Source: an uncultured Gemmatimonadota bacterium
Lineage (GTDB): Bacteria > JAAXHH01
Reading direction: 5' to 3'
DNA: 64,000 nucleotides
Assembly (NCBI GenBank): GCA_951812955.1
Contig: OX638340.1
Coordinates: 1,152,001-1,216,000 of the forward strand
Part shown: one piece after another, positions 13,764 through 61,506 of the stretch
Position numbering within the stretch: position 1 is the stretch's first letter
Layout: the number at the start of each line of letters is the position of its first letter
Translations under genes and position numbers: made by a program
Notes under the pieces: model-generated
Database searches by the model: none
What the model saw: only the letters and a program-made list of their open reading frames with translations
What the model was told of the DNA's origin: nothing

Positions 13764-16700
13764 TCAGCGGCCGGAGCCGTGCAGGCGCATGGCTTCTCTG
13801 AAACCCTCCTGAGAGACCCACCGCGTATTGTAGGTGTCCCGGTATTTCTGATGATCAACACTGTTCGGGTAATGGGCTTCGAGACCGTAAGGGTATCGGT
13901 CCATGCCGCGGAAGGGCAGGGGTTCGATCGTCGCCGCTGTCGCCGTGTTCAGGTCGCCTTCCTTGAGCCACCCATCGGTATGCAGAACGAAGTCCCTTTT
14001 CCAGCCCGGCGGTGGTTCGGGAAGGTCATTCGCTTCGAAGGTCACTGCGATTTCCTCTCCCGAACTGTAGACGACGTAACGGCTGTCCGATTTCCGCAAC
14101 AGGGCCGTGACATCACCGTACCGCGTCCTGTATCCCTCGAACGGCAGCCACTGCGGTTCGGCGCTCAGCGTCTGGTAGTCTCTGACGAAAGGACCGAGGG
14201 GCGCCGTCCGGTATTCCCGTGAGTAGCCGCGGTAGTGAAGATCGGCGGACAACGGTTGCAACCGGGTGATCGTTCTTTCGACCCGTTCCGGCTCGTCCAC
14301 GGTGAAAAAGGCCTCGCTCCAGTACAACTCCAGGTTGGTGGTGAGCCTGACGCGGTAGTCATCGGCGGGGAAATGGCCCGTCAGATCGACGAATATGGTC
14401 TTGTGTTCCCCCGAAGGAAAACCGGTGTATGGAATAACGGTACGCCATTGCCCTGCGCGGTCCGGCGTTTCCAGGTACGGCGGTATCACGGCGGTGTTAT
14501 TTCGCTGGGACAGGGCCAGGTTGGAGCTGGGCTCCACGGGCATGATCCAGCCGCAAAGGTACAGGTGGATCCGTTCGGCCCCGCTCAGATCTCCCAAATC
14601 CAGCGTGATCGAATGCGTCTCGGGAACGCCCTGGAATTCCCCGAGTTCGAAGTCACCCACGTACAGGCTGTCCCGTGCCGCGAGACGGGGCAGGATGTCG
14701 TTTCCATTGTGGTCTCGGGCGGCCAAGGGCGGGCGCGGGTCGGTCACGGTGTGGATCTCCAGTCCCGGATAGGGCGGCGGGAGGTACTTTTCATCTACGT
14801 AGATGTCTGTCTCCGCCGGGTGATCGACGACCAGCAATTCCATTTTATCCATGTACACCGCGTCCCATAACTCTTCTACGACACGGACTTCGAACTTTCC
14901 GTCCCGCTCCCGCAGTTGGTCACCCCGGATCTTCACGTAGTCGTTGGCCGCATCCGGATAGGCCGGTGCGCCGGTTTCCGTCAGGGCGCCGATTGCACTG
15001 CGTGTCATCAAGTGCGTGACGAACTCGTACCGCGCGCCGTTCCAAGTGTACAGCGACGGACAGGAGCCCTTAAGCCGCTGGGGTTCTACGATCAGCATGC
15101 GGGACTCCGGATCGATCCGGTTCTGGGGTACGCCGTTGCTCCAGATGACCCGGATAACGTCCGCCTTTTCGCGGCTGCCGAGACCTGCGTGGGAAATGGG
15201 CCCGTCGACCAGCAATGCCTGATAATGTGCGCCGGCGTTGACTTCGATGGTGGATCCAATGCCGTAGAAATTGTTCTTCCCGCTTCCTTCCAACGCCGCG
15301 GCGAGCCGTATGTTGAGCCACCCGTTCGCATTGCCGCCGTCATTGCGGAGCGCGATGATCCGGCCTTCGGACAGCAGCACGAGATCGAGATCGCCGTCGC
15401 CGTCCAGGTCGCTCTTTTCTACGGCTTCGACGTTGCCGGGCAGTTCCGGCAACAAGGCCGCCTGTTCCTCGAACCGGCCGTTCCCCAGGTTTCTGACCAG
15501 CCGGAGTCCGGAGCGTTCCGGGACCGACGTCCCGGCAAGGACCAGGTCGATGAACCCGTCGTTGTCGAAGTCGACAGGCCGAACAACGGCGGGATCAAGG
15601 CCTTCGCAGGCTCCGCCCAGTATCGCGGGTGTGTCCTGCCCGGCGAACCGTACGCCGCCTTCATTCCAGAACAACCTGCATCCATCGATTCCGGATCCCG
15701 CCATGAACAGATCCAGCGCGCCGTCGTTGTTGAAATCGGCGGCCGCGACCATATGCGCCTTGCCCCACCCGATGTCGCCGAACCGGTCCGTCCAGTCCAA
15801 CCACCTGCCCTGCCGTACGTTTCGGTAGAGCCGGTGCGATTCATCTTCAAACAGCGCGACCACGTCCACGGCTCCGTCCCGGTCGAAGTCTCCCCAGGCG
15901 AGCGCCTGACCGGCCGAAGGGAGAAAATCGCCTTCTGCCGCCCCGGCGGGAACGCCGCCTGCCGCCTCTTCGAAACCCGTGGAGGCCGTGGCTTCTTCAA
16001 ACAGTCCGTCCTCCGTATGACGGTAGAACCGGAGCGTCCTCATGTCGGACACCAGGATGTCCAGGTCGCCGTCGTGGTCGAAATCCACTCGCGCAACGGA
16101 TACCGGTGAAGTCGATCCGGTCCATTCAAAGGACTGCGCGAGGACGTAGGTTCCGTCTCCTGCATTATGAAACACCCGCGACTGCCCCGATCCGGCGGCG
16201 AACAGGTCGGCGTCGCCGTCGTTGTCGAAGTCGCCCGTTGCCAGCCTGAAGTCGCCCGTTGCCGGCCCGATATCCGCATCCTCCCCTCCCCTGGCCCAGG
16301 GGATCGAAACCGATTCCCAACCTTCTACTCGGTTGCGCAGCACGACCAGCGCACCTGTACCCGCCAGCACCAGATCCGGGCGGCCGTCCCCGTCCACGTC
16401 CGGCAGCGCCAGGTCTGTCCACGTCCCCGGCGCTTGAAGCGATGCCCCGATCAACGCGTCACCCGCGTCCACGAACCGCATGTCGACGAGGGAGTCCGCG
16501 TCCATGACGGCGAGGCCGGGCGGTGCCGAACGGAAATTGTAGAGCGGTGGCGACTGCTGCGTTGGATCTCCCAGTCGATCCCGAGACCGGCGGTAGGACG
16601 GATCCACGACGAGCAGGTTGCCCAGGATCCCCGCGTTGAATTCGGCTTCGTCAGCGTCCCTACGTTTCAGCGCGTCAAGTGTCCTGTCGAGCCAGGTCCG

Positions 16701-17330
16701 TACATCGTCCGAAAGGGGGACGAGCAACGAGGCCATCCGATCATACCCTTCGACGGCCTCGACGATCCTGCCCATACGGACCAGGGTCTGGTTCAGCTCG
16801 ACGAGTAAGGCCAGGTTGTCCGGTTCGTACGCGAGCATCGCCCGCAACTCGTCCAGTGCATCTTCATCCCGGTGGGCCGGTCCCCGCTGCCTTCTCATTT
16901 CAGTTAGATACTTGTACCTGAGCACCACGTTGGACTCGTTGTGTCCGACCGCGTGCGCAAGCATGTCAAGGGCGCGTTCGCGGTCTCCCCTCGCAGCCGC
17001 GATATCGGACCGGATGGAAAGGACTTCCCCATCCTGCGGGGCGAGATCCGAGGCCCGGTCTATGGCCGCTTCGGCGTTCTCTAAATCCTGCAGTTTCAGC
17101 AGCGCAATGGCCATGTTCGCGTGACCGAGGGGTTCTCGGGGCACCAGCCGGACCAGCGTCTGGAAGGAACCTGCCGCGCCTTCCGGATCATTCCGGTAAA
17201 GATAGGCCAGGCCGGTGTTCTTCTCGGACAGGGCTTCCACCCATACGTCGCGGGAAGGGGATGTATCACCGCATCCCGCGAGCAGGAAAGCGGCCAGTGA
17301 GAACCCGAAAATGGCGGTTGATGTCCGCAT
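13764..17330 (-). CDS. CRTAC1/ASPIC-UnbV family protein with N-terminal TPR repeats and FG-GAP/VCBS repeats, lipoprotein
   Basis: Repeated DFDNDGDxDL motifs, a C-terminal UnbV/ASPIC-like region and a signal peptide with LAGCG lipobox. The start may be Met 17351 or 17330. Confidence 0.7.
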   Translation of the reverse strand: MRTSTAIFGFSLAAFLLAGCGDTSPSRDVWVEALSEKNTGLAYLYRNDPEGAAGSFQTLVRLVPREPLGHANMAIALLKLQDLENAEAAIDRASDLAPQDGEVLSIRSDIAAARGDRERALDMLAHAVGHNESNVVLRYKYLTEMRRQRGPAHRDEDALDELRAMLAYEPDNLALLVELNQTLVRMGRIVEAVEGYDRMASLLVPLSDDVRTWLDRTLDALKRRDADEAEFNAGILGNLLVVDPSYRRSRDRLGDPTQQSPPLYNFRSAPPGLAVMDADSLVDMRFVDAGDALIGASLQAPGTWTDLALPDVDGDGRPDLVLAGTGALVVLRNRVEGWESVSIPWARGGEDADIGPATGDFRLATGDFDNDGDADLFAAGSGQSRVFHNAGDGTYVLAQSFEWTGSTSPVSVARVDFDHDGDLDILVSDMRTLRFYRHTEDGLFEEATASTGFEEAAGGVPAGAAEGDFLPSAGQALAWGDFDRDGAVDVVALFEDESHRLYRNVRQGRWLDWTDRFGDIGWGKAHMVAAADFNNDGALDLFMAGSGIDGCRLFWNEGGVRFAGQDTPAILGGACEGLDPAVVRPVDFDNDGFIDLVLAGTSVPERSGLRLVRNLGNGRFEEQAALLPELPGNVEAVEKSDLDGDGDLDLVLLSEGRIIALRNDGGNANGWLNIRLAAALEGSGKNNFYGIGSTIEVNAGAHYQALLVDGPISHAGLGSREKADVIRVIWSNGVPQNRIDPESRMLIVEPQRLKGSCPSLYTWNGARYEFVTHLMTRSAIGALTETGAPAYPDAANDYVKIRGDQLRERDGKFEVRVVEELWDAVYMDKMELLVVDHPAETDIYVDEKYLPPPYPGLEIHTVTDPRPPLAARDHNGNDILPRLAARDSLYVGDFELGEFQGVPETHSITLDLGDLSGAERIHLYLCGWIMPVEPSSNLALSQRNNTAVIPPYLETPDRAGQWRTVIPYTGFPSGEHKTIFVDLTGHFPADDYRVRLTTNLELYWSEAFFTVDEPERVERTITRLQPLSADLHYRGYSREYRTAPLGPFVRDYQTLSAEPQWLPFEGYRTRYGDVTALLRKSDSRYVVYSSGEEIAVTFEANDLPEPPPGWKRDFVLHTDGWLKEGDLNTATAATIEPLPFRGMDRYPYGLEAHYPNSVDHQKYRDTYNTRWVSQEGFREAMRLHGSGR

Positions 17331-17355
17331 CTTGCGTCCCTCTGATCTCAAAGGA

Positions 17356-26091: not shown

Positions 26092-27147
26092 ATGAATCGT
26101 GTTCTAGTCGTGCATGCGCTGTCGTTGGTGATCGGTTGTGCGGGTGACCAGGGACCGATTGGCCCCGGGGGGGAACAAGGTCCATAGAGCCTTCAATGTT
26201 CAGAGGGACCGGTAGGGCCGCAGGGCACGCGGGGCGAGCAAGGGCCGCAGGGAATAGCCGGGCCGACCGACCCACAGGGCTCACAGGGTCCACAGGGGAC
26301 TGGCGCGCCGCTGAATTGGGCAGACGTGATCGAGGAGGGGAACCTCTACGACGCGGTCTATGTGGTCGGTGTCTAGACTGAGAGTTACTGGACCATTATC
26401 GGCACGGCTTTTGCAGCCTACTACGACGACAAGATGTGGACCAACGCCCACGTCGTAAAGCGTGCTATGGAGGAAGCGCAGAATAAGATTGGCGAAGTGC
26501 GAACATTCGTGGCGCGAGCAGGAGAGCGGTTTGTGGATGAAGGGCAAGGTCCGGGATTTATCTACTGGAACGGCGCTATCATCCACGAAGACTATGATGC
26601 TGAGCAGTATCCCCATGACAGCCCCGACGTCGCCCTGCTCCGCCTGGAGGAGAATGTTACTGGACCACTGCCCGAGCTCTTGCCGCGTGAATTCAGCCAG
26701 GACCTGCGCATAGGCCAGCCGCAGGGAATATTGGGATATCCAGGCGGGCTGGGACATTAAACCCTCGAGCTCGTATTGCTGACGTTCAAAGAAGGCACGC
26801 TGTCTGCGCTGCGGCCCTTCCTGAACGAGAGCTTTGACGGAACCAATACGGGGATGTTGCTGCACTACAATTTCCTTACAGAAGGCGGGACACGCGGGAG
26901 CCCCGTCTTCGATCACAACGGTTACATCGTAGGCATCAATTTCGCCGGTCTTGATAAAGAAATCGAGTTCGGAGAGGAACTCGTCACGATTGAAACGTCG
27001 CACCAATTCGGCATACACGTGGAGGCTCTTTGGCAAATGATCGACCAGGTTGGCGGAGCGCCGGCCGTCGCCGCGCGCGTTACGGTACCGGAAGGATCTT
27101 ACGAGCCATTTCCGGCCGGCTGGATTGGTGAGACTATCGCGCCCTAG
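26092..27147 (+). pseudogene. Collagen-like S1 (V8/trypsin-like) serine-peptidase lipoprotein gene interrupted by three in-frame stops
   Basis: A single frame has TAG 26185, TAG 26374 and TAA 26758 with no frameshift. It reads lipobox VIGCAG, G-x-y collagen triplets, then protease motifs TNAHVV, DVALLRL and GGTRGSPVF (nucleophile Ser replaced by Arg). Confidence 0.6.
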
Positions 27148-27210: not shown

Positions 27211-27762
27211 ATGAGATCCGTCCTATTTATCGTTGCCATGCTGGTTTTCACAGCCTGCGAGGGCAAGGTAGGACCGGCTGGACCGGCTGGACCGGCTGGA
27301 TCAGCCGGTCCACAGGGTGTAAAGGGCGATACCGGGTCGCTGGGACCGAAGGGTGACAGTGGTGATCCTGGACCGGCAGGGCCGGCAGGGCCGGCAGGAC
27401 CGCAGGGGCCGGCAGGACCGCAGGGGCCGACAGGGCCGGCAGGACCGGAAGGCGGTGGTACCACGGAGCCGCCACCACCACCGCCGGAGCCGCCACCACC
27501 ACCGCCGCCACCGCCGCCACCGCCGCCACCGCCGGCCGGCGACGGAGCCTGCGTAGCCGGGTTGGTCGTGAATCCGGGTGAGAGTTGCGTTTACAATGGC
27601 TACGACTTTTCCGTTAGTTCCGAAGGCAGAGGGCGCATTGCCTTTTTCTCCGCGGGAAGCGGTATAGATGCAAGGGGTACCACGATCAACGGCGTACTTT
27701 GGAACTTCCATGCAACCCGAAACAGTGGCAGTAGCAGTTGGACCATTCATTCTGCTGATTGA
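27211..27762 (+). CDS. Collagen-like lipoprotein with polyproline linker
   Basis: Signal plus Cys, about 25 G-x-y triplets, a run of about 25 Pro, then a C-terminal globular domain. Confidence 0.7.
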
Positions 27763-28305: not shown

Positions 28306-29050
28306 TTAAACAGGTGGTTTCATTTGCTCGAACTCGACCGAAGGCGTGTAGCTTAAGGCGGGGTGCAAGCGTTTACGATTGTAGAGCTTGTAGATGAAGT
28401 AACCGATGCGTGATCGGGCTTCTTCGAGGGATTCGTACTCGTAGAGATAGCCCTCCTCGTATTTGAGCGTCCTGATGAAGCGCTCTGCTTTGGCGTTGTC
28501 ATAGGGGTTATCGCGCCGGCTCATGCTGATTCTAATACCGGCCTTTTTGTGGGTTTCGACATAGGCTTTGGAGGCGTACTACACGTCCCGGTCGGAGTGA
28601 TGTACCAAGCCCTTTGGTACCGATCTGGATGCCAGGGCGCTGTCCAAGGCATGAAGGGCAAGACCTGCATCGAGGGTTCGATTCAAAGCCCAGCCGATGC
28701 ATTTTCTGCTGCAGGCGTCAAGGACCACGGCCAGATAGATCCATTCGCCGGCCAGGCGGATGTAGGTGATTTCGGTCCCCCAGAGTTGATTGACTCCGAT
28801 TGTGTTCAGTTCCGGAACCAATTGGCGTAGAAGGCACGATCAGGGTTCGAGTCGGTGGTCGTTACGAAGACCTTGAGTCGCAGGGCAATCCGGTTGTCTT
28901 CGTACATGAGGCGCAGGACGCGCTTATGGTTTCAACAGGTAGAAAAGGCGTCTGAGTGTCCTAGTCAAAGAACGGTAGCCTTAGGAAGACCAGGTAAGGG
29001 AGAGCTTGTGTATCATGTCCCGCAGTTCAAGGGCCGGATCCATACGGCCT
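28306..29050 (-). mobile_element. IS3-family transposase OrfB remnant (pseudogene, 5'-truncated)
   Basis: rve integrase-core motifs (NQLWGTEITYI, YLAVVLD, DNAKAERFIRTLK), broken by stops and frameshifts. OrfA is absent. Confidence 0.7.
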
Positions 29051-29388: not shown

Positions 29389-32181
29389 ATGCCCTTGATT
29401 TACATTCGTGCCATACCCGTGTTCATATGTCTTGTATTGTTCACTCTGACCACCTGCGGCAAGGACAGCCCCACCAGACCGAAGCCGCCAGATCCACCGC
29501 CGCCAGTAGTGCCCGTAGCCACCCGCATTGACATCACTCCGCCTTCTGCCACGTTGAACTCGGTTGGCCAGACTATTCAACTCAACGCAAGAGTCCTGGA
29601 TCAGAACAACGCGCCAATTAGTGGCGCAGCCGTGACATGGACCAGCAGCGACAACGGCGTGGCTACCGTCACCGTCCAGGGGTTGGTAACTGCGGTAAAG
29701 AACGGCACGGCACGGATCACAGCCCGATCAGGTAATATCTCTGCAAATGCGAATGTCACTGTGTTACAGACAGCCGGTAGTATCGTTATCGAATCGGCTA
29801 TGACGACGCTAACAGCCATCGGTCAGACCGTCCAGCTGACGGCGAATGTACTGGATCGTAATGACAAGCCGGTAGCCGGTGCTGTCGTGACCTGGACGAG
29901 CAGCGATGCGTCCGTAGCAACGGTCAACGAACAGGGGTTGGTGACGGCCGTCAAGAGTGGCGGCACACGGATCACGGCACGGTCAGGCAGCGCCTCAGCA
30001 GGCATCACTGTTACGGTAATGCAGTCGGTAGCAAGTATCGTGATAGAGCCTGAGATGGCGACGCTCATGTCGATCGGCGAGACCGTGCAACTCACCGCCA
30101 CCGTTCTAGATCAGAACCGGCAACCAGTAGATGATGCCGTCGTCACCTGGCAGAGCAGCGATGAGGAAGTGGCCACCGTAAGCGCTGCAGGACTCGTTAC
30201 CGCCATCGGCAACGGCATGGCAACTGTCACCGCCAGATCAGGCAACGCCTCGCAGACGGCAACCTTGACTGTGACGATCCTTGATACACGACGCGACCGA
30301 GAAGCCCTTGCCGCACTGTATCATAGTACGGATGGACCGAATTGGACCAACAACACGAACTGGCTGAGCGATGCGCCTCTAGACTCATGGCATGGCATAG
30401 GAACTACCACACTTGGAGAGGTTCAGTATCTGAATTTGGGGGAGAACAATCTCCACGGCATCATCCCACCTGAAATAGGCAAACTTCAAAAACTGACAGT
30501 ACTGGCGCTCTACGGCAATAGTTTGACCGGCAACATCCCGCCCGAAATCGGACAGTTACAGAACCTGACAGATCTTAATCTCGGCGACAACGAGTTGAGC
30601 GGCCCTATCCCCACTGAAATAGGGCAACTTCAAAAACTGACAGGTCTTACTCTCGCCGGCAACCAGTTGAGCGGTCCAATCCCCCCTAATATAGTGCAAT
30701 TGCTGGAACTAAAATTCCTGTGGCTCGGCGGCAACCAGTTGAGCGGTCCTATCCCCACTGAAATAGGGCAACTTCAAAAACTGACAACTCTATGGCTAGG
30801 CGCTAATCAACTGACCGGCAACATCCCGCCCGAAATCGGACAGTTGCGAAACCTTACTGACCTAAATCTTGATTTTAACCAGTTGTCTGGATCCATACCC
30901 CCCTTAATCGGACAACTACAGCATCTGAAATTCCTGCGGCTGAATGGCAACCAGTTGACTGGATCCATTCCGCCCGAAATCGGACAGCTTAGCATGCTTA
31001 GGTTCTTGAACATGGCCTTCAATCCCAATCTTTCGGGGCCATTACCGGTAACAATCACCTCTCTTTCCAACATGGAATCCCTGAGTTTGCACTACACTCA
31101 AGTATGTATTCCTCCTACCGCCCAATTCCAGTCATGGTTAGACGGGATAGAAAACATAAGAGGCGATATTTCTAGCTGTCCAGGGCCAGAGGGACCAGTG
31201 GAACCGGAAGAACCGGAAGAACCGGAAATGCCGCCTCCTGTCGGAGAGCGTCTGGACGTGAGGATTGTTTATTTTGTTCCTGCAAATCATACTGGATACC
31301 CGAACATAGATGCCAAGATAGATTCGTTGGTCAACATCGTCAAATTGACTTATGCGGAGATATTTGAATTTCATGGCTTCGGCGATAGAACCTTTCAGCA
31401 CGAGCAAAATGCGGATGGCACGGCCAGGGTATATCATGTGAAGGGCCAATACGATGGCGAATACTATTCCAGCGAAACATTTTTTAAGGTTATACATACC
31501 GAATTGGAACAGATATTCGATTTAGAATCGAATATTTACTGGGTCGTATTGGATGCTATCGATGCAACTGTAGATGGTTATTGCGGGCAAGGGTATGGTG
31601 ATCTTCCTGAGGGCGGCGCGTTTTTAATACCCGGACCAAACGACTACTGGTTGGAGGATCGCGGGTGGAGTTGTTTCAACCCATCAGTTGCATCCCACGA
31701 AATCGGACATTCCTTTGGTCTAACCCATGACCTGCTCAGAGACGAAGTGCGTGTCGAGTCCTCATATCAAGATGACTGGATGATTACTTCGTATTGTGCC
31801 GCCGAATGGATGTCGGTACATCCATTCTTCACCGGCGAACCAACCACGGGGAATGACAATGAGGGTGAAATAAGTCTAAGGTCGATTTCTGATGCTTCAT
31901 CCGAGACTATCCGCCTGGTTTTCGATGTGAGCGACCCCGATATGCTGCACCAGGCTCAACTTCTTGATAGAAACGGAGAAACGATAGCCTACCGTGGATT
32001 GGAAGGCGAAAGCGCTACCGTTGTGTTTGAAACCGACCAGGTATCCTACGGCGATCAGATCTTGTTACGAACTATAGATAAACGTGCCTTTGTTGTTGAA
32101 GGCAAGTTCATTATAGATCGAGATGGGCCTATAACAGTAAGACAATTACAAACGGGGCGACCCTTCAAGCCACAGTATTAA
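29389..32181 (+). CDS. Surface lipoprotein: 4 x Big_2 Ig-like domains + ~9 plant-type LRRs + C-terminal matrixin-like zinc metalloprotease domain
   Basis: Lipobox LTTCGK and a four-times repeated Big_2 pattern (VATVxxxGLVTAVxxGxARITARSG). There are 24-aa LRRs (LxxNxLxGxIPxEIGQLQxLT) and HEIGHSFGLTHD (HExxHxxGxxH). The start is trimmed to Met 29389. Confidence 0.75.
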   Translation: MPLIYIRAIPVFICLVLFTLTTCGKDSPTRPKPPDPPPPVVPVATRIDITPPSATLNSVGQTIQLNARVLDQNNAPISGAAVTWTSSDNGVATVTVQGLVTAVKNGTARITARSGNISANANVTVLQTAGSIVIESAMTTLTAIGQTVQLTANVLDRNDKPVAGAVVTWTSSDASVATVNEQGLVTAVKSGGTRITARSGSASAGITVTVMQSVASIVIEPEMATLMSIGETVQLTATVLDQNRQPVDDAVVTWQSSDEEVATVSAAGLVTAIGNGMATVTARSGNASQTATLTVTILDTRRDREALAALYHSTDGPNWTNNTNWLSDAPLDSWHGIGTTTLGEVQYLNLGENNLHGIIPPEIGKLQKLTVLALYGNSLTGNIPPEIGQLQNLTDLNLGDNELSGPIPTEIGQLQKLTGLTLAGNQLSGPIPPNIVQLLELKFLWLGGNQLSGPIPTEIGQLQKLTTLWLGANQLTGNIPPEIGQLRNLTDLNLDFNQLSGSIPPLIGQLQHLKFLRLNGNQLTGSIPPEIGQLSMLRFLNMAFNPNLSGPLPVTITSLSNMESLSLHYTQVCIPPTAQFQSWLDGIENIRGDISSCPGPEGPVEPEEPEEPEMPPPVGERLDVRIVYFVPANHTGYPNIDAKIDSLVNIVKLTYAEIFEFHGFGDRTFQHEQNADGTARVYHVKGQYDGEYYSSETFFKVIHTELEQIFDLESNIYWVVLDAIDATVDGYCGQGYGDLPEGGAFLIPGPNDYWLEDRGWSCFNPSVASHEIGHSFGLTHDLLRDEVRVESSYQDDWMITSYCAAEWMSVHPFFTGEPTTGNDNEGEISLRSISDASSETIRLVFDVSDPDMLHQAQLLDRNGETIAYRGLEGESATVVFETDQVSYGDQILLRTIDKRAFVVEGKFIIDRDGPITVRQLQTGRPFKPQY

Positions 32182-32590
32182 GTCGTAACATCATTTGCTC
32201 GAACGCGGCCGGTGGTGTGTAGCCTAACACTGATGGTAGATCGGACCACATGACAAAGAACCCGGTCTTCGTCGGTGATCCACTCGCTCCAGGACCCCGG
32301 ATAGAGCACGGCGTCACCCAGGCCCGCGTGGGCAATGGCGAGCAGGTTGTGGCAGGCCGAGACCCCTGAACCGCAGTAGTTTATGGCGCGCTCCACGGGG
32401 ATACCTGCGAGCAAACCCTCGTATCTCTGCCTCAGTTCCTCAGGCGCCCGAAAGCATCCGTCTTCCCCGAGATTCTCATCGAAAGACGCGCACCGCGTCG
32501 ACCATTGAGAACCGCGCGTCGATCACGCGCCAGTCCGGATCCCGGTGATGGCGGTGCAGCGTCTGAACGTCGATCAGCGTGGTTTGCATG
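32181..32590 (-). pseudogene. Rhodanese (SseA-like sulfurtransferase) remnant with internal deletion and frameshift, abutted by an IS3 tail fragment
   Basis: The N-terminus ...RVIDARF and C-terminus INYCGSGVSAC...YPGSWSEW are present but about 170 aa of middle are missing. An IS3 C-terminal fragment (LGYTPPAAFEQM) lies at 32190-32237. Confidence 0.5.
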
Positions 32591-32639
32591 GCCGATCCAC
32601 GTGCCGGTGTATTCAGGCTTCTTTACCCGTTCTCTTCGT

Positions 32640-33480
32640 ATGTGAATTGGGAGGTAGCAATATCACTATACTGATGTTACCCCGTTTTCGTGGATGGTTT
32701 ACCATTTGGGATTCAGGCAGTTATCTTGAACCTCCTTTCGAAGTATATAGGTGAGAGGTATCCCCAAGGGAAGAGTGCCTTCTCCGGGTGTTGTAGAAGC
32801 CCGCGATGCACTGGAACTGGGCGAGTCTGGCGTCGGCCCTGGTTCCAAAGCACTTGCGATCGAGCAGTCCGCATTCCAGGCTGGTGAAGAAGCCCTCGCA
32901 CAGGGTATTGTCGTAGCAGTCGCCGACCGAACCCATCGAGGGTCTGACCGCGGCCTGCCTGCATTGATTGCCAATGGCCATCTGGGTGTATTGCAATCCC
33001 TGGCCGCTGTGGTGGATCACCGCGTGGGGTCTGTGCATTCCAAAAGGGTCATGCCGAGGGCGTCTGTGACCAGTTCGCTTCGCAGGTGGTTGGGTATGGG
33101 CCAACGCTTCTCAGGCTGCGGCCGGAACGTACGAGGTCGACCATCTGCTGGCGGAAGGCTGCCAGACAGGGGCCATGTAATTCGGGCAGGGCACGCTCCT
33201 TTCAACAAAAGAAGTTACATGTCCACTAAACCGGGTAAACTCCACCCAATTGGGGTCTTTAATCCCGGTCAAGTTTCTCAGGTTCCAGACCGTTCCCCAA
33301 ACAATTACTTGACGTTAAAAGCTTGCGAACAGTACTATGCAGTTAATCGTACGACTATATCCCCAACAAAGCTGGCAGTATTACCGGCCAACCTACTCTG
33401 TACGGCATTCAATTCGGCTGGATCATCAAATCTAGACCGAAATCTGAAAACGTCAACTTGGCTGATACACATGTTCGGTA
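32640..33480 (-). mobile_element. IS3-family transposase remnant (OrfB with frameshift)
   Basis: HHSGQGLQYT...SMGSVGDCYDNTLCEGFF...FYNTRRRHSSLG is a typical IS3 rve core, with a frame break near the C-terminus. Confidence 0.65.
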
Positions 33481-33516: not shown

Positions 33517-34752
33517 ATGAAATGGCTTATCGGAACAACGGTTGTAGCGTTGTTTCTCACACTGACCGTCGCGTGCGCAAACATGGAAGTGGCTGAGCAG
33601 ACCGATGAAGTGGCCGAAGAGACCGCCTCCGACGCCGTGATGGCGCCGGTATTCGAGGTGGATCCCATGTGGCCGAAGCCGCTTCCCAACCACTGGATCC
33701 TAGGTTCCGCCATCGGCGTGACCGTCGACTCCAACGACAACATCTGGATCATACACCGGGGCAACGGTAATCCGAATACGGAACTGGGCGCCGCGCAGGA
33801 TCCACCCGTGGCCGAATGCTGCATTCCCGCTCCGCCCGTACTCCAATTCAGTCCCGAAGGCGATCTATTGAACCACTGGGGTGGACCGGGTGAAGGATAC
33901 GACTGGCCCGGATCGAATCACGGCATAACCGTAGACCCGATGGGCAATCTGTGGATAGGGGGCAACGGGGGTGACGACGCCCATATCCTGGTCTTCGCAC
34001 AGGACGGCACCTTCCTGAAGCAGTTCGGTTCCCCGGGCGCACGACGGGCCGAATCGTTTGACGAGGCGGACCCGTCATGGTCCGGCAACAGCATGGATCC
34101 CGGGAATTTCGGGCGGGTGGCCAAGATTTCCTTCGACGCCAGCGCGAACGAGGCCTACGTAGCGGACGGCTACCTGAACAAGCGGGTCGCGGTGCTCGAC
34201 ATCGAGACAGGAACCCTGAAGAGGTATTGGGGCGCTTACGGCAACGAGCCGGACGATGCCGATATCGGGCGGTATGATCCGGAAGCTCCGCCTGCCCAGC
34301 AGTTCCGCAATCCAGTCCACGCCGCCGATCCTTCAAACGACGGTCTCGTCTACGTCTGCGACCGCCCGAACAACCGTATCCAGGTATTCCGGACGGATGG
34401 AACCTTCGTGCAGGAGAAAGTCCTCTCCGTCAACACGCTGGGCGCCGGGTCTACCTGGGACGTTGCCTTCTCAAAGGATTCCGAACAAAAGTACGTCTAC
34501 GTGGCCGACGGACAGAATATGAAGGTATACGTGTTGCTCCGGGAGACGATGGAAGTTCTGACCACATTTGGAGCCGGCGGCCGTCAGCCCGGCCAGTTCT
34601 TCGGTACGCACAGCATCGCGACCGATTCGAAGGGCAATATCTACACCACCGAGACCTACGAAGGCAAGCGCGTCCAGAAGTTCACCTACATGGGTGAGGG
34701 CCCTGTCGAGCAAAAAGACCAGGGCGTCATATGGCCTGCCGCATCCCGGTAG
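33517..34752 (+). CDS. NHL-repeat beta-propeller lipoprotein
   Basis: Signal peptide with lipobox Cys and repeated NHL-like blades (YVADxxNxRVxVF). Confidence 0.6.
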   Translation: MKWLIGTTVVALFLTLTVACANMEVAEQTDEVAEETASDAVMAPVFEVDPMWPKPLPNHWILGSAIGVTVDSNDNIWIIHRGNGNPNTELGAAQDPPVAECCIPAPPVLQFSPEGDLLNHWGGPGEGYDWPGSNHGITVDPMGNLWIGGNGGDDAHILVFAQDGTFLKQFGSPGARRAESFDEADPSWSGNSMDPGNFGRVAKISFDASANEAYVADGYLNKRVAVLDIETGTLKRYWGAYGNEPDDADIGRYDPEAPPAQQFRNPVHAADPSNDGLVYVCDRPNNRIQVFRTDGTFVQEKVLSVNTLGAGSTWDVAFSKDSEQKYVYVADGQNMKVYVLLRETMEVLTTFGAGGRQPGQFFGTHSIATDSKGNIYTTETYEGKRVQKFTYMGEGPVEQKDQGVIWPAASR

Positions 34753-36128
34753 GAAGGGCCGACGGGGTTTCCCCTCTCCAGGGACGCAGGACGGCGACCA
34801 GCCCGGTTGCCGTCCGCGTCCTGCTGTATCTTGCCTTCACCGGAATCGCGGCCGCCGTATCGTTAACCGGTGCATACGGCCATGACATCCCCAGTGACAT
34901 AACTGTTCGAGCTTTCGTCAAGCCGGAAGGCCAGCGTCTCAGGATGCTCGTGCGCGTACCGCTCGAAGCCATGCTCGACGTGACGTTTCCCCTGTCCGGT
35001 CCCGGCTACCTGGATCTCGCCCGGGCCGACGAATCCCTGAACAACGCGGCCATGCTCTGGATCGGGCAGGAGGTGTCGATTTACGAAAACGGCTCGCGCC
35101 TCTCCTTGCCCGAACTCGCGGCCGTCAGGGCCTCTCTCCCTTCCGACCCATCCTTCCGAACGTACGAATCCGCACTGGCCTCCACCCTTGGACCGCCGCT
35201 TCCTGAAGGCACACAGGTCTATTGGCAACAGGTAATGCTGGATGTGCTGTTCGAATACCGGATCACATCGGACCGGTCGGAGTTTTCAATCCTGCCCGGC
35301 CTGGAAAGACTGGGGATGCGGGTCTCGACGGTACTGCGCTTCCTGCCCGCCGCCGGTGGCGAACGTATCTACCAGTTCACAGGGAATCCCGGCCGTATCA
35401 TGCTCGATCCCCGGTGGCACCAGGCCGCGTTTCGCTTCGTGTGGCAGGGTTTCACCCACATCCTCGACGGCATGGACCACCTCCTGTTCCTGCTGTGCCT
35501 GGTTATCCCCTTTCAAAGGCTGCGCGTACTCGTGATCCTCGTCACCGCCTTCACGATCGCGCACTCGATAACGCTGATCTCTGCCACGCTGGGTCTGACG
35601 CCCGCCGCCCTCTGGTTCGTCCCGCTCGTTGAAACGGTGATCGCGGCCTCTATCGTGTACATGGCGCTGGAGAACATCGTCGCGCCCGGACTGCGCCGGC
35701 GCTGGATGGCCGTGTTCGGATTCGGACTCGTACACGGCTTCGGTTTCGCCTCCGCGCTCCGGGACATGCTGCCCTTCGGCGGGACCCACCTTTTGACCTC
35801 GCTGCTGGCGTTCAACGTGGGCGTCGAACTCGGCCAGCTGCTGGTGATCCTGGTCTGCGTTCCTATACTGAGGGTACTCTACAGGTACATCCCGGGTGAG
35901 GGGACCGGAAGGGCCAGGCCGGTCGGCGCCATCATTCTCTCAGTACTCGTGGGGCATACGGCTTGGCATTGGCTGGTGGAACGAGGCGGAACGCTGTGGG
36001 AATTCGATGTGATGTCCACGTCGCCGGACGGCGCGCTCTATGGGGTGGCGGGACTCCTGGCCCTGATGCTGGTCATCGCCGCACTGGCCGGCTGGGCGCT
36101 TACCCGTCCTGGCCGTCCGCTCGAATGA
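34731..36128 (+). CDS. HupE/UreJ-like membrane protein with N-terminal periplasmic domain
   Basis: HILDGMDHLLF...TIAHSITL...GLVHGFGFA are HupE/UreJ_2-like His-rich TM motifs. The true start is probably downstream of 34731. Confidence 0.5.
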   Translation: MACRIPVGRADGVSPLQGRRTATSPVAVRVLLYLAFTGIAAAVSLTGAYGHDIPSDITVRAFVKPEGQRLRMLVRVPLEAMLDVTFPLSGPGYLDLARADESLNNAAMLWIGQEVSIYENGSRLSLPELAAVRASLPSDPSFRTYESALASTLGPPLPEGTQVYWQQVMLDVLFEYRITSDRSEFSILPGLERLGMRVSTVLRFLPAAGGERIYQFTGNPGRIMLDPRWHQAAFRFVWQGFTHILDGMDHLLFLLCLVIPFQRLRVLVILVTAFTIAHSITLISATLGLTPAALWFVPLVETVIAASIVYMALENIVAPGLRRRWMAVFGFGLVHGFGFASALRDMLPFGGTHLLTSLLAFNVGVELGQLLVILVCVPILRVLYRYIPGEGTGRARPVGAIILSVLVGHTAWHWLVERGGTLWEFDVMSTSPDGALYGVAGLLALMLVIAALAGWALTRPGRPLE

Positions 36129-48658: not shown

Positions 48659-50896
48659 ATGAAGTTCTGCCGGCTCGAAATCTGCAACTGGATGGCCGCG
48701 CTTATACTCCTGTGGACCGCCGCAGGTTGCGCGAGCACACCGAGACCCGTTTCCCATGACGCCGATATCGGAGGCGTGATGGAAGCCGGCAACGCGTCAA
48801 TGCGCAACGGAGACTACGAAAGCGCCATCTCCTTCTACCGCAGGGCATTGGCGATCGACATGACGGATTCTGAAGCCTTCGGGAACCTCGGCGTGGCCTA
48901 CTACTACCTGGAAAGATACGATGATGCGGTCCGGGAGGTATTGCAGGCCGTCGTACTTTCACCCGAAGAGATCAACTGGCGGCTCAACCTGGGTGCGATC
49001 TATACGCGCAGGGATGATCACGAAGGCGCTGCGAGGGCCTATGGCGCCGCCGTCGATATCGCCCGGGACCTGCCGGACGAAAACCGGCATCAGCTACGGA
49101 ATGCCCTGCTCGGCCTGGGGCGGTCGTGTGAAATGGTCGGCTGGTACGACCGGGCGCTTGAGGCCTACGAAGAGGCACTGGTGTTCGGACCCGAGGACAC
49201 GGAACTGCTGACAGGGGCCGGCAACGTGTATTTCCGGCTGGGACGGCTGGACGAGGCCGAAGCGTCTTATCAACGCACGCTGGCGCGGGATTCCACCCAC
49301 ACCGTGGCCAGGTATAACGTGGCCCTAATCTACGCCAGGACGGGACGGTACGAAGAGGCACTCGAACTCTTTGAGGATAATCCCGCGGTGGACAGGCAGC
49401 TGGAAGGCGCCCTGGAAGGGAGTACCGTGAGCGCCGTGGACCGGTCGAAGACGCGCAGCATCACGGCCTATCGCGCCAGGCTCGAGAGAATGGGCGGAAC
49501 GCCGCCCCCCGTCGCCAGGCAGGGGCGCCGAGCGAGCCGGCCGCTGCCCTATATCCACGTGATGGGCGTGTCCTATTACGAGCAAGGTGCATACTTCGAG
49601 GCGATGCAGGCCTTCGAAAAGGCGCTGGAGGAAGACCCGGGGCTTGCGGACGCTCATCTGTATATAGGTAATATCCACGCCAGGCAGAATCGCCATGCGT
49701 CGGCGATCGATGCCTATGAAAAAGCGGTAGATGCCGACGCAGAATTCGCCGAGGCCTATAACAACCTGGGCAGCATGTATGCCAACGTGGACCGGACCGA
49801 AGACGCCATGGCGGCATATAGGAAGGCGCTCTCGCTCAACGATCGATTCTATGACGCCCGGACCAACCTCGGGCTGCTGTATGCAGAGGCCGGGCGACTG
49901 GATGACGCGGTCGACGAGTACATGCAGGTCATCCGGGCCGATGTAGGCATCGCCGAGGTCCACAACAACCTTGGCATGGTGTATCTCAGGCAGGGGAGGT
50001 ATGACGATGCCAGGGAACAGATTGAAAAGGCCATAGCGCTTCACGCCGGCTTTGCGGAAGCCTACAATAACCTCGCGCTTACATACAGCAGGAACATCGT
50101 CCTGGACGATGTGATAGAAACCTGGCGTGAACTCGCGGCCGGGTGGGCGGGTCATGATCGCACGACCGGGACGGTCTACGACTGGCTGCCGCTCCGGCGC
50201 GTTCCCGCCCATTCCTCCGCCGTGGGCGGCGAAGCGAGATCGGCCTACCGCGACGGAGTCGATGCCGCCTTCGCACATGACCTGGACACCGCGATTTCCC
50301 GCTTCGAAGAAGCCCTTGCGATGCGGCCCGGGTGGAGCGCCGCGCGGATGGCCATCGGCGCCGTGTTGCTGGCCCAGGGGAAATGGGACGCGGTGGAATC
50401 AGTAGTCGCAGAAGCCCTGGACCCGGAATCTTCCGATCCGCTGCCCAATGCCATCCTGGCTATCGCGCAGGTATCCGGCGGCGACTACGGCTCGGCACTG
50501 ATGTCCTGGGAAGAATCGGTCCGATTTGCCGCGGAACCGGACAGAACGGCCGCGCGTGAAGCGCTGGAGGCGATGCGTTCGCGTACCGAGGCAGGAGAAA
50601 GCGTGTTGAATGCACTGGACCGGGCCTTGGCGTTGCGGCCGGGCTTTACAACCGCTCATTTCAATATTGGTCTTGTCAATGACCAGTTGCACCGGTACCA
50701 TCAGGGCATTCGAAGCTACAGGGAAGTCGTCCGCCTCGCCCCGGAGCTTGCAGCCGGACATTTCCGTCTTGGTATCGCATACTACCGGTTGGGGGAGTTC
50801 GAAAAGGCCCGGGATTCGATGCGCGAGTACATTCGTCTCTCCGCAGATCCCATGCTGCTCCCCCAGGTAGAAACCTTCTTGAATAAACAGGGGTAG
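48659..50896 (+). CDS. TPR-repeat lipoprotein
   Basis: Signal peptide plus lipobox AAGCAST and more than 12 tandem TPR units (xAxxYxNLGxxYxxxGxxxxA). Confidence 0.8.
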   Translation: MKFCRLEICNWMAALILLWTAAGCASTPRPVSHDADIGGVMEAGNASMRNGDYESAISFYRRALAIDMTDSEAFGNLGVAYYYLERYDDAVREVLQAVVLSPEEINWRLNLGAIYTRRDDHEGAARAYGAAVDIARDLPDENRHQLRNALLGLGRSCEMVGWYDRALEAYEEALVFGPEDTELLTGAGNVYFRLGRLDEAEASYQRTLARDSTHTVARYNVALIYARTGRYEEALELFEDNPAVDRQLEGALEGSTVSAVDRSKTRSITAYRARLERMGGTPPPVARQGRRASRPLPYIHVMGVSYYEQGAYFEAMQAFEKALEEDPGLADAHLYIGNIHARQNRHASAIDAYEKAVDADAEFAEAYNNLGSMYANVDRTEDAMAAYRKALSLNDRFYDARTNLGLLYAEAGRLDDAVDEYMQVIRADVGIAEVHNNLGMVYLRQGRYDDAREQIEKAIALHAGFAEAYNNLALTYSRNIVLDDVIETWRELAAGWAGHDRTTGTVYDWLPLRRVPAHSSAVGGEARSAYRDGVDAAFAHDLDTAISRFEEALAMRPGWSAARMAIGAVLLAQGKWDAVESVVAEALDPESSDPLPNAILAIAQVSGGDYGSALMSWEESVRFAAEPDRTAAREALEAMRSRTEAGESVLNALDRALALRPGFTTAHFNIGLVNDQLHRYHQGIRSYREVVRLAPELAAGHFRLGIAYYRLGEFEKARDSMREYIRLSADPMLLPQVETFLNKQG

Positions 50897-54369: not shown

Positions 54370-57174
54370 ATGATACACCGTAGGTTTATTTCCTGGATTG
54401 CGCTTGCGCTGTTTGCTCTGGTCTCGACCGATGCCATCGCACAGCAAGATCAGGAAATGGAAGAGATCGATTTCGTCGCCGAAGAAGTGACCGTTACCGG
54501 TTCCCGCATCAGGGGCGAAGCCGCAGAATCTACCGCACCCGTTATAATCCTCGCTAAAACACAGATTCAGGAGTTGGGGCTCGCGTCCATCGGCGACGTG
54601 CTCCAGACCCTGACCGTCCAATCCAACGCCATCAACACCCAGGCCAACAACGGCGGAGACGGATCCACTCGGATCAGCCTTCGCGGACTGGGCTCTACCC
54701 GAACATTAGTACTGGTCAACGGCCGCCGTTTCGTGCCGGGCGGCACCGGGGCGAACTCGTCCGTCGATCTGAACTCCATACCCGCGTCCGTGATCGAACG
54801 AATCGAGGTGCTTAAAGACGGCGCCTCGGCCGTGTATGGTTCCGATGCCATCGGAGGTGTCGTAAACGTTATTACGCGGTCCGACCTGGAAGGCGTGGAG
54901 TTCGAGTACTACCAGGGCGTTTCGGGCGCGGGCGACGGTGACGTGATCGACGCGAGCATAACCGCCGGCTTGCGAAGCGGCCGGGGGAGTATCCTGTTCT
55001 CCGCCGGGTACCACAACCGCAAACCGGTCTGGACCGGCGACCGCGATTTCAGCGCGGCGGACAAGAGCTATGACTGGGGTGCGAACGACGGAACCTTCAC
55101 CACCAGCGGCAGTTCGGCCACGCCCGAAGGAACCATTATCGACCGTTTGGGTGAGGAGGGCAACGCGGCCTGGCAGGCGATTGTTGACAGGGCCGGGGAA
55201 GACGCTGGAGTCTACTTTAACGCACCATCCGGTGGGTGGCGTCCCTTCAACTTCTCGGGAAACTCGCTGGACGGGACAGGCGACCTGTACAACTACCAGC
55301 CGGCGAACTACCTGTACACGCCGCAGACAAGGTACTCCGCGTTTCTAAGTGGCAATTACCTTTTCAACGATAATCTGAGCGGGTTTTTCGAGGTGTCGTA
55401 CACTAACCGGCAATCGGACCAGAAGCTAGCGCCGACTCCTCTGTTTATCTTCTTCGAAGATGATGTCTCGGTGTCAGAGGAAAACCAATACAACGAATAT
55501 GGCCGCGACTTCTTGGACGTCCGACGGAGATTCGTCGAAGCGAGCAACCGCAACTTCCTGCAGGACCTCGACACTTACCGGATCGTCCTCGGACTGGATC
55601 ACGAATTCAGAGGATTTACCGGAGACCTGGCCTTTTCCTATGGCCGCACCAGCGGAACCAACATAAACGAGGGCCGGTTCATCCTGAGCAATGTAAGGAA
55701 AGCGCTGGGACCTGATTCGGAGTGTGTGGCGCCCTGCGTACCCCTCGACCTGCTGCACGGGCCCGGTACAATCACGGAGGATATGCTTAAGTACATTCAA
55801 TACACCGGCATCGCCAGGGGTTATACGAAGCAGAGAATCCTGCAGTACAACCTGACCGGTGACCTGTATGAATTGCCGGCGGGACCCCTTGCCGTGGCCG
55901 TAGGTGCATCGTCCAGGTGGGAAGCGGGTGGCGCTATTCCCGATCCCATTACCGCCACGGGCAACACCACGGGCAACAAGGAAGAAGCGACCGAGGGCGA
56001 CTACTCGGTCCGCGCAGTTTACGCCGAGACCAGCATTCCTGTGTATCAGAACGAGATGGGCGGCCTGGACATTACGGCCGCGGGCCGTCTTTTCAACTAC
56101 GACACCTTCGGTACGGACTTCACGTACGAGGCGGGCGCCCGGCTCGAACTCCCACGGGGCCTGGCCTTCCGTTCGACCTTCTCAAAGGCATTTCGTGCAC
56201 CGAGCGTCGCCGAGATGTTCCTGGGACAGAGCGACAGCTTCCCGCTGGTCAGCGATCCGTGCAGCGTCGTGGACGAGGCCGGCAACCCGCGCAACCTGTC
56301 TTCGCAGCAGAGGAGCAACTGCGCGTCCGCGGGGGTACCTGCGGATTTTGAAGACACCAGGGCACAGCTCAGGGCCCGGATCGGTGGCTCCACCGATCTC
56401 GATCCCGAACGAGCCAACACGGTCACGGCCGGCGTGGTGTACCAGCCCGAGTTCATGGAAAACCTCGATGTCGCAGTCAGTTACTACGCCACAAAGATCG
56501 AGGACGAAATTGGAGCACTCGGCGCGGGTCTGATCCTGAGCAACTGCTACTCCCAGGACAGCCCGACGGACTGCGACAAAGTCCAGCGTGACCAGAGCGG
56601 AGTGATCAGAAACATCTTCTCGACCGCCACCAACATCGGCGAGACGGAAACCAATGGGCTGGACTTCGAACTGAATTACTTCGAAGACACGCCCCTCGGC
56701 CTGCTCTCGGCACGGCTCGAATCCAATTACCTCTTCGCCTACGACGTGTACCTGCCCATACCGGGTGGTTTCGAACTGGTCCAAGGCAGAGGGTATTACG
56801 ACCTGGGTGTGTACCCCACCTGGCGGCACAACGCCAACGTCGGGTTGAAGTGGAGCCGCACATCGGCGGGTGTGACTTGGCAGTACACCGGTGGATTTCA
56901 GGAGTGCGAAGACGATGACTGCAAGGGCCTGTACCGCGACGACGTCGAAACGTCCCCGACGGTCCGGGACGTGGATGCGAACCACCTCTTCGGCATCCAG
57001 GGGTCCTACCGGTTGTTTTCACGGGCAGGCGGCTCCATAATAACGGTCGGTGTCAACAACGTGTTCGACACGGCGCCCTCGGTGATCTTCAACGGGTTCC
57101 TGGGCACGTCTGACGCGTCGACGTACGACTTTCTGGGCAGGTACCTGTACATCCGTCTGTCCCACTTTTTGTAG
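54370..57174 (+). CDS. TonB-dependent outer-membrane receptor
   Basis: Signal peptide, TonB box/plug (VTGSRIRGEA...), TBDR barrel and C-terminal aromatic. Confidence 0.85.
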   Translation: MIHRRFISWIALALFALVSTDAIAQQDQEMEEIDFVAEEVTVTGSRIRGEAAESTAPVIILAKTQIQELGLASIGDVLQTLTVQSNAINTQANNGGDGSTRISLRGLGSTRTLVLVNGRRFVPGGTGANSSVDLNSIPASVIERIEVLKDGASAVYGSDAIGGVVNVITRSDLEGVEFEYYQGVSGAGDGDVIDASITAGLRSGRGSILFSAGYHNRKPVWTGDRDFSAADKSYDWGANDGTFTTSGSSATPEGTIIDRLGEEGNAAWQAIVDRAGEDAGVYFNAPSGGWRPFNFSGNSLDGTGDLYNYQPANYLYTPQTRYSAFLSGNYLFNDNLSGFFEVSYTNRQSDQKLAPTPLFIFFEDDVSVSEENQYNEYGRDFLDVRRRFVEASNRNFLQDLDTYRIVLGLDHEFRGFTGDLAFSYGRTSGTNINEGRFILSNVRKALGPDSECVAPCVPLDLLHGPGTITEDMLKYIQYTGIARGYTKQRILQYNLTGDLYELPAGPLAVAVGASSRWEAGGAIPDPITATGNTTGNKEEATEGDYSVRAVYAETSIPVYQNEMGGLDITAAGRLFNYDTFGTDFTYEAGARLELPRGLAFRSTFSKAFRAPSVAEMFLGQSDSFPLVSDPCSVVDEAGNPRNLSSQQRSNCASAGVPADFEDTRAQLRARIGGSTDLDPERANTVTAGVVYQPEFMENLDVAVSYYATKIEDEIGALGAGLILSNCYSQDSPTDCDKVQRDQSGVIRNIFSTATNIGETETNGLDFELNYFEDTPLGLLSARLESNYLFAYDVYLPIPGGFELVQGRGYYDLGVYPTWRHNANVGLKWSRTSAGVTWQYTGGFQECEDDDCKGLYRDDVETSPTVRDVDANHLFGIQGSYRLFSRAGGSIITVGVNNVFDTAPSVIFNGFLGTSDASTYDFLGRYLYIRLSHFL

Positions 57175-60018: not shown

Positions 60019-60056
60019 GCGGCCGATCACCTTTGCTGGGGTTGAATTCCACTGCG

Positions 60057-61409: not shown

Positions 61410-61506
61410 TCCGTCTCCTAGATTAAGCGGAATTACTATAGAGTTTACTTTGTATTGTAATTACACATCGATAAGATAATCCGCCTGTGGGTATATCCCA
61501 CAAATT

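Follow-up and report, generated by a model that had tools for sequence, protein, structure and literature searches.

A predicted lipoprotein of an uncultured Gemmatimonadota bacterium carries an OgpA/AMUC_1438-family metzincin behind a cassette of Ig-like domains and leucine-rich repeats

The gene at positions 29,389 to 32,181 of a 64,000-nucleotide stretch of DNA from an uncultured Gemmatimonadota bacterium (assembly GCA_951812955.1, contig OX638340.1, positions 1,152,001 to 1,216,000; the whole stretch is hereafter the window) encodes a predicted lipoprotein of 930 residues, in which Ig-like domains and leucine-rich repeats (LRRs) precede a C-terminal metzincin of the OgpA/AMUC_1438 family. 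A preliminary description of the gene had read this C-terminal domain as a matrixin, akin to the vertebrate matrix metalloproteinases (MMPs); because its sequence profile and its fold both match OgpA and AMUC_1438, we assign it to the family of these two enzymes and not to the matrixins. The open reading frame itself is real, running as a single uninterrupted frame on the plus strand from an ATG preceded by AAGGA (Table 1), and the public protein collection contains a protein, P0001, identical to its 930-residue product.

OgpA-type O-glycopeptidases are, to our knowledge, represented by just two characterised enzymes, both from Akkermansia, OgpA dating from 2020 and AMUC_1438 from 2022; enzymes of this type serve as tools in glycoproteomics. 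Briefly, OgpA (AMUC_1119, 'OpeRATOR', from Akkermansia muciniphila; PDB entries 6Z2D, 6Z2O, 6Z2P and 6Z2Q) consists of a catalytic domain (residues 25-262) and a beta-sandwich (263-385), with H205, H209 and H215 as zinc ligands, E206 as the catalytic glutamate and M231 in the Met-turn (PMC7518263). AMUC_1438, the Tn-antigen-specific O-glycopeptidase of A. muciniphila (8DEK and 8DF2), shares this fold with a sequence identity of 19% (PMC9513282). Both are strictly O-glycan-dependent, both stand outside the MEROPS classification, and the Pfam family PF12044 covers about 30 residues around the AMUC_1438 motif (PMC9513282). The two enzymes cut immediately N-terminal to O-glycosylated serine or threonine.

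The C-terminal region of the window protein comprises its last 310 residues (aa 621-930; adding 620 to the domain numbering gives the protein numbering). In Pfam it has sub-threshold matches only, confined to about 20 residues around HExxH, namely to Reprolysin_4 (18.6 bits, cut-off 22), Peptidase_M10 (14.6 bits, cut-off 24; profile positions 110-126 of 159), Astacin (13.6 bits, cut-off 22.5) and, for the window protein taken alone, PF12044 (12.9 bits, cut-off 27); in NCBIfam the window protein has no protease match, and no model covers the 35 relatives that we aligned. When 1.84 billion representatives were searched exhaustively with HMMER, the domain proved to have 1203 relatives at E<=1e-3, of which 849 reach E<=1e-10. 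A word-indexed search with the 310-residue domain alone gave no match, a result that we disregard as a false negative because P0001 and the 94%-identical P0003 are in the same database. P0003 and P0014 (81% identical over the domain) are the orthologues of the window protein; all other relatives are at most 48% identical. Thirty-five relatives of the domain were brought together in an alignment and profile, A1. PF12044 matches 30 of them, which is consistent with this model marking the motif region of AMUC_1438, and Pfam M10 matches nine at E<=1e-3; across the protease family, Reprolysin-type and PF12044 models outscore M10.

A search of the PDB with the single sequence gave a weak, collinear match to an 'O-glycan protease', entry 6z2d (E 0.15-0.26). 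With the A1 profile, hmmsearch matched the same OgpA entry at E 3.2e-14 and AMUC_1438 (8dek/8df2) at about 1e-12 (1.2e-12 over residues 5-152), ten orders of magnitude ahead of any other protease; the best adamalysin or classical metzincin, a snake-venom metalloproteinase, reached E 7e-4 and the best MMP E 4e-3. An AlphaFold2 model of the domain had a mean confidence (predicted local distance difference test, pLDDT) of 45 from the single sequence and of 90.4 with the alignment, in the latter case with a predicted template-modelling (TM) score of 0.89. Compared with the PDB by Foldseek, this model is closest to OgpA (E 1.5e-15, TM-score 0.66) and AMUC_1438 (E 1.4e-14, TM-score up to 0.70), the next best structures being ADAM and snake-venom proteinases; no MMP stands among its listed structural matches. 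As predicted, the fold has two domains, a five-stranded metzincin catalytic domain and a beta-sandwich, with the groove architecture kept over 265 aligned residues; the zinc motif begins on helix 145-155 of the model. The adamalysins or reprolysins (MEROPS M12B, which holds the ADAMs and snake-venom metalloproteinases) share with the window protein the motif HExxHxxGxxHD, with Asp and then a Met-turn (a candidate one in the window protein), and come near it in Pfam, with Reprolysin_4 at 21.2 (cut-off 22), but only about 150-165 residues superpose, at a TM-score of about 0.32; the window protein lacks their disintegrin and Cys-rich domains, and its Pfam scores all lie under the cut-offs.

That the domain is a metzincin-type zinc endopeptidase, as the preliminary description had expected, is supported by the agreement of model and profile and by its active-site residues. 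The motif HExxHxxGxxH is intact at aa 770-780, with its three histidines and its glutamate, and a search for a third histidine and a Met-turn, which had been recommended, found the former in H780 and a candidate for the latter in Met798. In A1 the third histidine (H160 in domain numbering) is invariant, while H150, E151, H154 and G157 each reach a conservation of at least 90%; likewise invariant or nearly so are a strand near the N-terminus (VRxxYFxP), a helix (YAExMExHGFGRKTF) and a CAAEW segment. Met798 stands in the context DDWMITSY, for which the A1 consensus is DxMxTS, and methionine is the majority residue of a column that is under 90% conserved. An aspartate follows the third histidine in 128 of 161 domain matches.

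In OgpA, the profile match takes in the N-terminal strand and helix (..IVYF.. and ..Y..EM..HG(F/Y)G..) as well as HExxHxxxxxH, and in neither protein is a prodomain evident. The two differ in the spacing from third histidine to methionine, which is 16 residues in OgpA (H215 to M231; PMC7518263) and 18 in the window protein, in the residue after the third histidine (Asn in OgpA, Asp here) and in an extra helix insert (NDYWLED, domain residues 131-137) of the window domain. Whereas OgpA, from a gut Verrucomicrobium, stands free as a two-domain enzyme, the unit described here is the C-terminal module of a 930-residue predicted lipoprotein with three Big_2 domains and nine LRRs. AMUC_1438 and the window protein both carry an accessory binding module, which is a C-terminal CBM51-like NPCBM in the former and an N-terminal LRR/Ig cassette, normally protein-binding, in the latter; both have marginal PF12044 coverage, and both are unclassified in MEROPS. 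In a group of relatives with an N-terminal protease (P0121-P0128), some 40 residues with a conserved cysteine (..FCxPxD..) separate the signal peptide from the domain and may serve as a short propeptide, which the window protein lacks.

Upstream of the protease, the product begins with a signal peptide, the lipobox of which had been noted before but is non-canonical: it reads L-T-T-C, and the threonine at position -1 is outside the canonical set [LVI][ASTVI][GAS]C. The lipobox is nevertheless supported, because orthologues and paralogues share the mature N-terminus CGKDSPT, which in them comes after LAAC, VVSC or LATC, and the sequence thus makes the window protein probably a lipid-anchored, extracellular lipoprotein. 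Of the four Big_2 domains counted in the preliminary description three are present, since both the Pfam stretches and the copies of the core motif G[EQ]T[VIL]QL[TN]A number three.

Plant-specific LRRs have the class consensus LxxLxxLxLxxNxLxGxIPxxLGx and are framed by N- and C-terminal caps (Kobe and Kajava classification). The nine 24-residue units of this class counted previously are all there: they follow the pattern LxxLxxLxLxxNxLxGxIPxEIGQ in register and in tandem between an N-cap and a C-cap, and match the Pfam model LRR_14 at E 3e-32. Matches in NCBIfam to LRR proteins of Xanthomonas (the effectors XopAE, XopAC and XopL) and of Leptospira (LIC_11051) are far under the cut-offs and were rejected as signs of orthology, reflecting the LRR class only. 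The repeats had also been called near-identical at the nucleotide level, a view that did not hold up: the pair quoted for it (30601-30660 and 30731-30790) is out of register, with 17 of 60 positions identical as against 49 of 60 at the true offset of +144, whole 72-nt units are 47-79% identical in pairs, and exact repetition extends over 39 nt at most (30604-30642, the same as 30748-30786). Variation in repeat number, which had been suggested, does occur between lineages, because the three orthologues differ in both counts, P0014 having one Big_2 domain and eight LRR units, the window protein three and nine, and P0003 (locus L001) four and 16.

The junction between LRRs and protease marks the gene as a mosaic. 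A Gemmatimonadota protein with the same design of cassette plus protease, P0036 (Big_2, plant-type LRRs and a StcE-like Peptidase_M66), is 56% identical to the window protein over aa 11-601, from ..TCGKDSPT.. to the LRR C-cap, and the homology stops exactly at the cap, at aa 601; proteins of the P0036 type end in an M66 domain (trypsin-like in P0040) instead of an OgpA-like one, and are longer, with a second LRR block. The composition shifts as well: GC content falls from 58% over the Big_2 part through 49% over the LRRs to 46% over the protease (48% at third codon positions, GC3), the window as a whole lying at about 60% and the neighbouring genes at 60-64% (GC3 64-77%). In this gene, therefore, a resident Big_2-LRR cassette gives way at the LRR C-cap to a protease module of low GC and different composition, which was presumably acquired horizontally. 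The cassette is very common in these lineages, with 6019 matches at E<=1e-10; PF10462 (Peptidase_M66) occurs in 42 of its 120 best matches, and others carry Trypsin_2. Fusions to LRRs are also frequent in the protease family, at least three LRR units being present in 70 of 151 representatives by a conservative regular-expression count (59 C-terminal, five N-terminal, six both; mostly internalin-like). The rarity claimed earlier for the architecture thus applies to its domain order: plant-type LRRs N-terminal to this protease are found only in the window protein and its two orthologues, three sequences in all.

Purifying selection maintains the protease gene, the dN/dS ratio being 0.41 against L001 and 0.27 against L082, and both the reading frame and the catalytic residues are intact. 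The three orthologues occupy different genomic contexts; by tblastx, the protease gene and the remnant of a rhodanese gene are the sole parts that the window shares with L001. The closest orthologue, P0003, lies on JGI contig PetF_10000195, and the same sequence is on LXNJ01008791, LXNJ being a metagenome of the sponge Petrosia ficiformis (PMC5099237). A metagenome scan for further close orthologues yielded one contig, probably from the same Petrosia ficiformis population as L001 and P0003. A role in host interaction, proposed in the preliminary description, is plausible given this sponge origin of the closest orthologue.

We favour, with moderate confidence, the reading that a Gemmatimonadota bacterium of a sponge-type microbiome possesses here an intact gene for an extracellular protease of the OgpA/AMUC_1438 family, probably anchored by lipid, which is likely to act on mucin-like O-glycoproteins and to which the LRRs would give target selectivity. 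Export by the Sec pathway would be followed by lipidation at C23, in keeping with the mature N-terminus conserved in relatives and despite the non-canonical lipobox; the Pro-rich linker and the three Big_2 domains may form a stalk that keeps the protein off the membrane, the nine-unit LRR solenoid could act as an exosite binding a protein or glycoprotein target, and the flexible Pro/Glu linker would let the two-domain endopeptidase reach it. Catalysis would be that of a standard metzincin, with zinc held by H770, H774 and H780, E771 as the general base activating water and M798 beneath the metal, while the substrate peptide would lie between the catalytic and beta-sandwich domains, in the groove that they form. 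By homology, mucin-like O-glycoproteins would be the likeliest substrates, whether these belong to the host matrix or to other cells. The domain composition, the fold and family, the intact catalytic motif, the purifying selection and the mosaic make-up are shown by the analysis; lipidation, surface exposure, dependence on O-glycans, the exosite role of the LRRs and the host substrates are inferred.

By homology with the two characterised enzymes, the window protease may itself depend on O-glycans. Their aromatic sugar pocket is made up in OgpA of Y116, F166, W199, N235 and Y236 and involves Y171 and Y217 in AMUC_1438; in the window domain (domain numbering), the family-invariant Y73 aligns in the loop bearing the Gal-stacking Y116, Y111 precedes the edge strand as do F166 and Y171, F143 in a conserved 'CF' is another positional candidate, and Y182 lies four residues past the methionine, where OgpA has N235 and Y236 at +4 and +5. 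Several points weigh against the favoured reading. Identity to OgpA and AMUC_1438 is only 13-17% (about 14-17% for OgpA and about 15% for AMUC_1438); the four pocket equivalents rest on positions in loops, the alignment of which is uncertain; the residue six before the first histidine, W199 in OgpA and Y217 in AMUC_1438, is an asparagine, with a conserved phenylalanine one position earlier; the lipobox has its threonine at -1; the gene sits among pseudogenes; and a promoter and terminator scan gave nothing above shuffled expectation, with no sigma-70-like site upstream of the gene, sigma-70 being the promoter type that it covered. The authors of the AMUC_1438 study, moreover, describe the family as large and mostly environmental and its biological roles as possibly diverse (PMC9513282). 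This last remark, the generic metzincin character of fold and motif, with ADAMs and snake-venom proteinases as next structural neighbours, the want of demonstrable conservation in the OgpA pocket residues and the presence of trypsin-like proteases behind the same cassette would all suit a glycan-independent general metzincin of OgpA-like fold, degrading host extracellular-matrix or competitor proteins for nutrition or niche remodelling, with the LRR and Ig parts as an adhesion module or tether only. We hold this to be unlikely, though a serious contender, since both characterised family members are strictly O-glycan-dependent, the two-domain groove that holds the glycopeptide is retained in the model, the invariant Y73 falls in the loop of Y116, and sister cassette proteins carry Peptidase_M66, the family of StcE, which is counted among the O-glycan-specific peptidases (PMC7518263).

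The remaining two alternatives are much less probable. The matrixin assignment, in which an M10, MMP-like domain of eukaryote-like origin would be fused to an LRR receptor module, drew on the resemblance of HEIGHSFGLTHD to the MMP consensus HEFGHSLGLxHS, and it can also point to the weak Pfam M10 matches in the window protein and in the nine relatives. The resemblance is genuine as far as HExxHxxGxxH goes, and the generic form HExGHSxGLxH is common to matrixins (MEROPS M10A, PF00413) and the window protein; the agreement with the consensus, however, extends to 8 of 11 defined positions, matrixins have Ser after the third histidine and a Met-turn of the ALMYP type where the window protein has Asp and DDWMITSY, the M10 score is under its cut-off with coverage of the motif only, and other models score higher across the family. 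A cysteine-switch propeptide (PRCGxPD) was not seen on reading the sequence, in which the linker PGPEGPVEPEEPEEPEMPPPVGE directly precedes the domain, no dedicated motif search having been made. With the fold and profile searches pointing to OgpA and AMUC_1438, we reject the identity as a 'bacterial MMP' and give it hardly any credence. It is improbable, too, that the gene is a decaying, non-functional leftover of a degraded mobile island, neither expressed nor active. IS3 remnants on both sides, as first described, the breakage of a trypsin-like gene and the deletion in a rhodanese gene nearby, an atypical GC content and the lack of a sigma-70-like promoter upstream all lend colour to that idea; against them stand the uninterrupted 930-codon frame with its ribosome-binding-site-like AAGGA, the full set of intact catalytic residues and the dN/dS of 0.27-0.41 against orthologues in two other genomic contexts, and the promoter scan leaves non-sigma-70 promoter types uncovered.

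Table 1. Features of the protease gene and of the insertion-sequence and rhodanese remnants beside it (positions in the window)
Feature	Position	Strand	Remarks
IS3-family transposase remnant, upstream	28306..28821	-	frameshifted fragments; Pfam rve, rve_2, rve_3; NCBIfam NF033516 positions 215-283 and 305-369 of 369
Open reading frame, uninterrupted	29353/29389..32181	+	930 aa from ATG 29389; AAGGA (ribosome-binding-site-like) 6 nt 5' of ATG
Signal peptide with non-canonical lipobox LFTLTT/C	29389..29457	+	Cys23 codon 29455-29457
Pro-rich linker GKDSPTRPKPPDPPPPVVPV after the predicted lipidated Cys	29458..29520	+	translation
Three tandem Big_2 Ig-like domains	29521..30279	+	aa 45-127, 128-211, 212-297 (approx.); Pfam PF02368, E 1.1e-31, 3 stretches
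LRR N-terminal cap DREALAALYHSTDGPNWTNNTNWLSDAPLDSWHGI	30280..30411	+	conserved in P0003, P0014, P0036
Nine 24-residue plant-specific-type LRR units, 72 nt each	30412..31059	+	aa 342-557; Pfam LRR_14, LRR_1, LRR_8; Tandem Repeats Finder period 72
LRR C-terminal cap LSNMESLSLHYTQVCIPPTAQFQSWLDGIENIRGDISSC	31060..31179	+	to aa ~597; end of cassette common with M66-bearing paralogues; BLASTP alignment to P0036 stops at aa 601
Pro/Glu-rich linker PGPEGPVEPEEPEEPEMPPP	31180..31248	+	9-nt x3 tandem repeat at 31201-31227
Metzincin catalytic domain, OgpA/AMUC_1438 family	31249..31857	+	
Zinc-binding/catalytic motif HEIGHSFGLTHD	31696..31731	+	aa 770-781: H770, E771, H774, G777, H780, D781
Met798, Met-turn candidate	31780..31782	+	18 residues after third His
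C-terminal beta-sandwich domain, predicted to pack on protease as in OgpA	31858..32148	+	
Rhodanese / 3-mercaptopyruvate sulfurtransferase remnant	32178..32593	-	two ends only; NCBIfam NF008557 fragment
IS3-family transposase remnant, downstream	32721..33104	-	Pfam rve_3; NCBIfam NF033516 positions 272-364 of 369

That sponge symbionts have 'eukaryotic-like' LRR and Ig proteins is textbook knowledge. The distribution of the protease family was surveyed in GTDB representative genomes, where the best 80 loci fall to Poribacteria (48), Latescibacterota (20), Gemmatimonadota (three), Acidobacteriota (two), Rhodothermales (one) and unnamed taxa (six); because the search patterns were built from the subfamily of the window protein and only the best loci are listed, these counts are biased and indicative only, and the source genome is not among the matches listed. 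Up to four paralogues per genome occur among the GTDB matches listed. It is possible, and we suggest it tentatively, that the microbiomes of sponges and corals harbour, in their Poribacteria, Latescibacterota, Gemmatimonadota and Acidobacteriota, a large, undescribed radiation of OgpA-like glycoprotein proteases, fused repeatedly and independently to LRRs (mostly C-terminal and internalin-like, here N-terminal and plant-type), and that a Big_2-LRR 'targeting cassette' is exchanged among OgpA-like, M66/StcE-like and trypsin-like modules by recombination at the LRR C-cap. A keyword search of open-access full texts returned no description of this protease family coupled to LRR modules, of an expansion of the OgpA family in Poribacteria and Latescibacterota, or of the swapping of Big_2-LRR cassettes among these three kinds of protease. 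If such a radiation and exchange exist, they would amount to a modular system by which particular surface glycoproteins of hosts or neighbours are recognised and cleaved, diversified through LRR number.

The locus suggests a large divergent branch of the OgpA family in symbionts of early-branching animals, tied to LRR recognition modules and not to carbohydrate-binding ones. Should its members depend on glycans, they would be of interest both as possible tools of new specificity and as candidate effectors for the processing of sponge matrix or surface glycoproteins by symbionts. For annotation, the tempting label of a 'bacterial MMP' is corrected, at a time when Pfam and NCBIfam cannot resolve the protease family.

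The surroundings of the gene differ from the rest of the window. Between 25400 and 33500 the GC content is 50-58%, as against about 60-64% elsewhere, and the region looks like a decaying island because of this low GC and because its content consists solely of broken genes, IS3 remnants, a collagen-like gene and the protease gene. A trypsin-like serine protease gene (Trypsin_2 / C-terminal part of Peptidase_S46) at 26196-27147 (+), split over at least two frames (26434-26760 and 26776-27147), looks like a frameshifted pseudogene in this low-GC stretch. The rhodanese remnant aligns with L001 by blastn in two parts (32262-32497 with L001 10656-10891, and 32493-32593 with L001 11387-11487) and thus lacks an internal segment of about 500 bp (L001 10891-11387); the L001 gene is intact and encodes 283 residues. 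Another 'eukaryotic-like' neighbour of the protease gene, at 27211-27762 (+), encodes a predicted lipoprotein of 183 residues with the lipobox FTAC. Collagen-like G-x-y repeats take up about 60 of these residues and are followed first by a poly-Pro tract and then by a small C-terminal domain; the Pfam model Collagen matches at E 2.6e-8, and NCBIfam gives weak matches to the collagen-like adhesins Scl and Lcl. Directly downstream of the island lie a gene for a 411-residue NHL-repeat beta-propeller lipoprotein (33517-34752, +; lipobox LTVAC) and then one for a HupE/UreJ_2 membrane protein (34731-36128).

An Rfam scan of the window gave no match. The MutL protein encoded in the window has 82-86% identity to proteins that bear the name 'Gemmatimonadetes bacterium', and the affiliation of the organism was inferred from these homologues. 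Repeat proteins are encoded at 13764-17351 (FG-GAP/TPR) and 48659-50896 (multi-TPR), and tandem genes for TonB-dependent receptors of 934 and 936 residues at 54370-57174 and 57208-60018 (+). A second low-GC patch (50%, in the bin 60001-62000) holds an open reading frame of 450 residues (60057-61409, -), which has no Pfam match at E<=1e-5.

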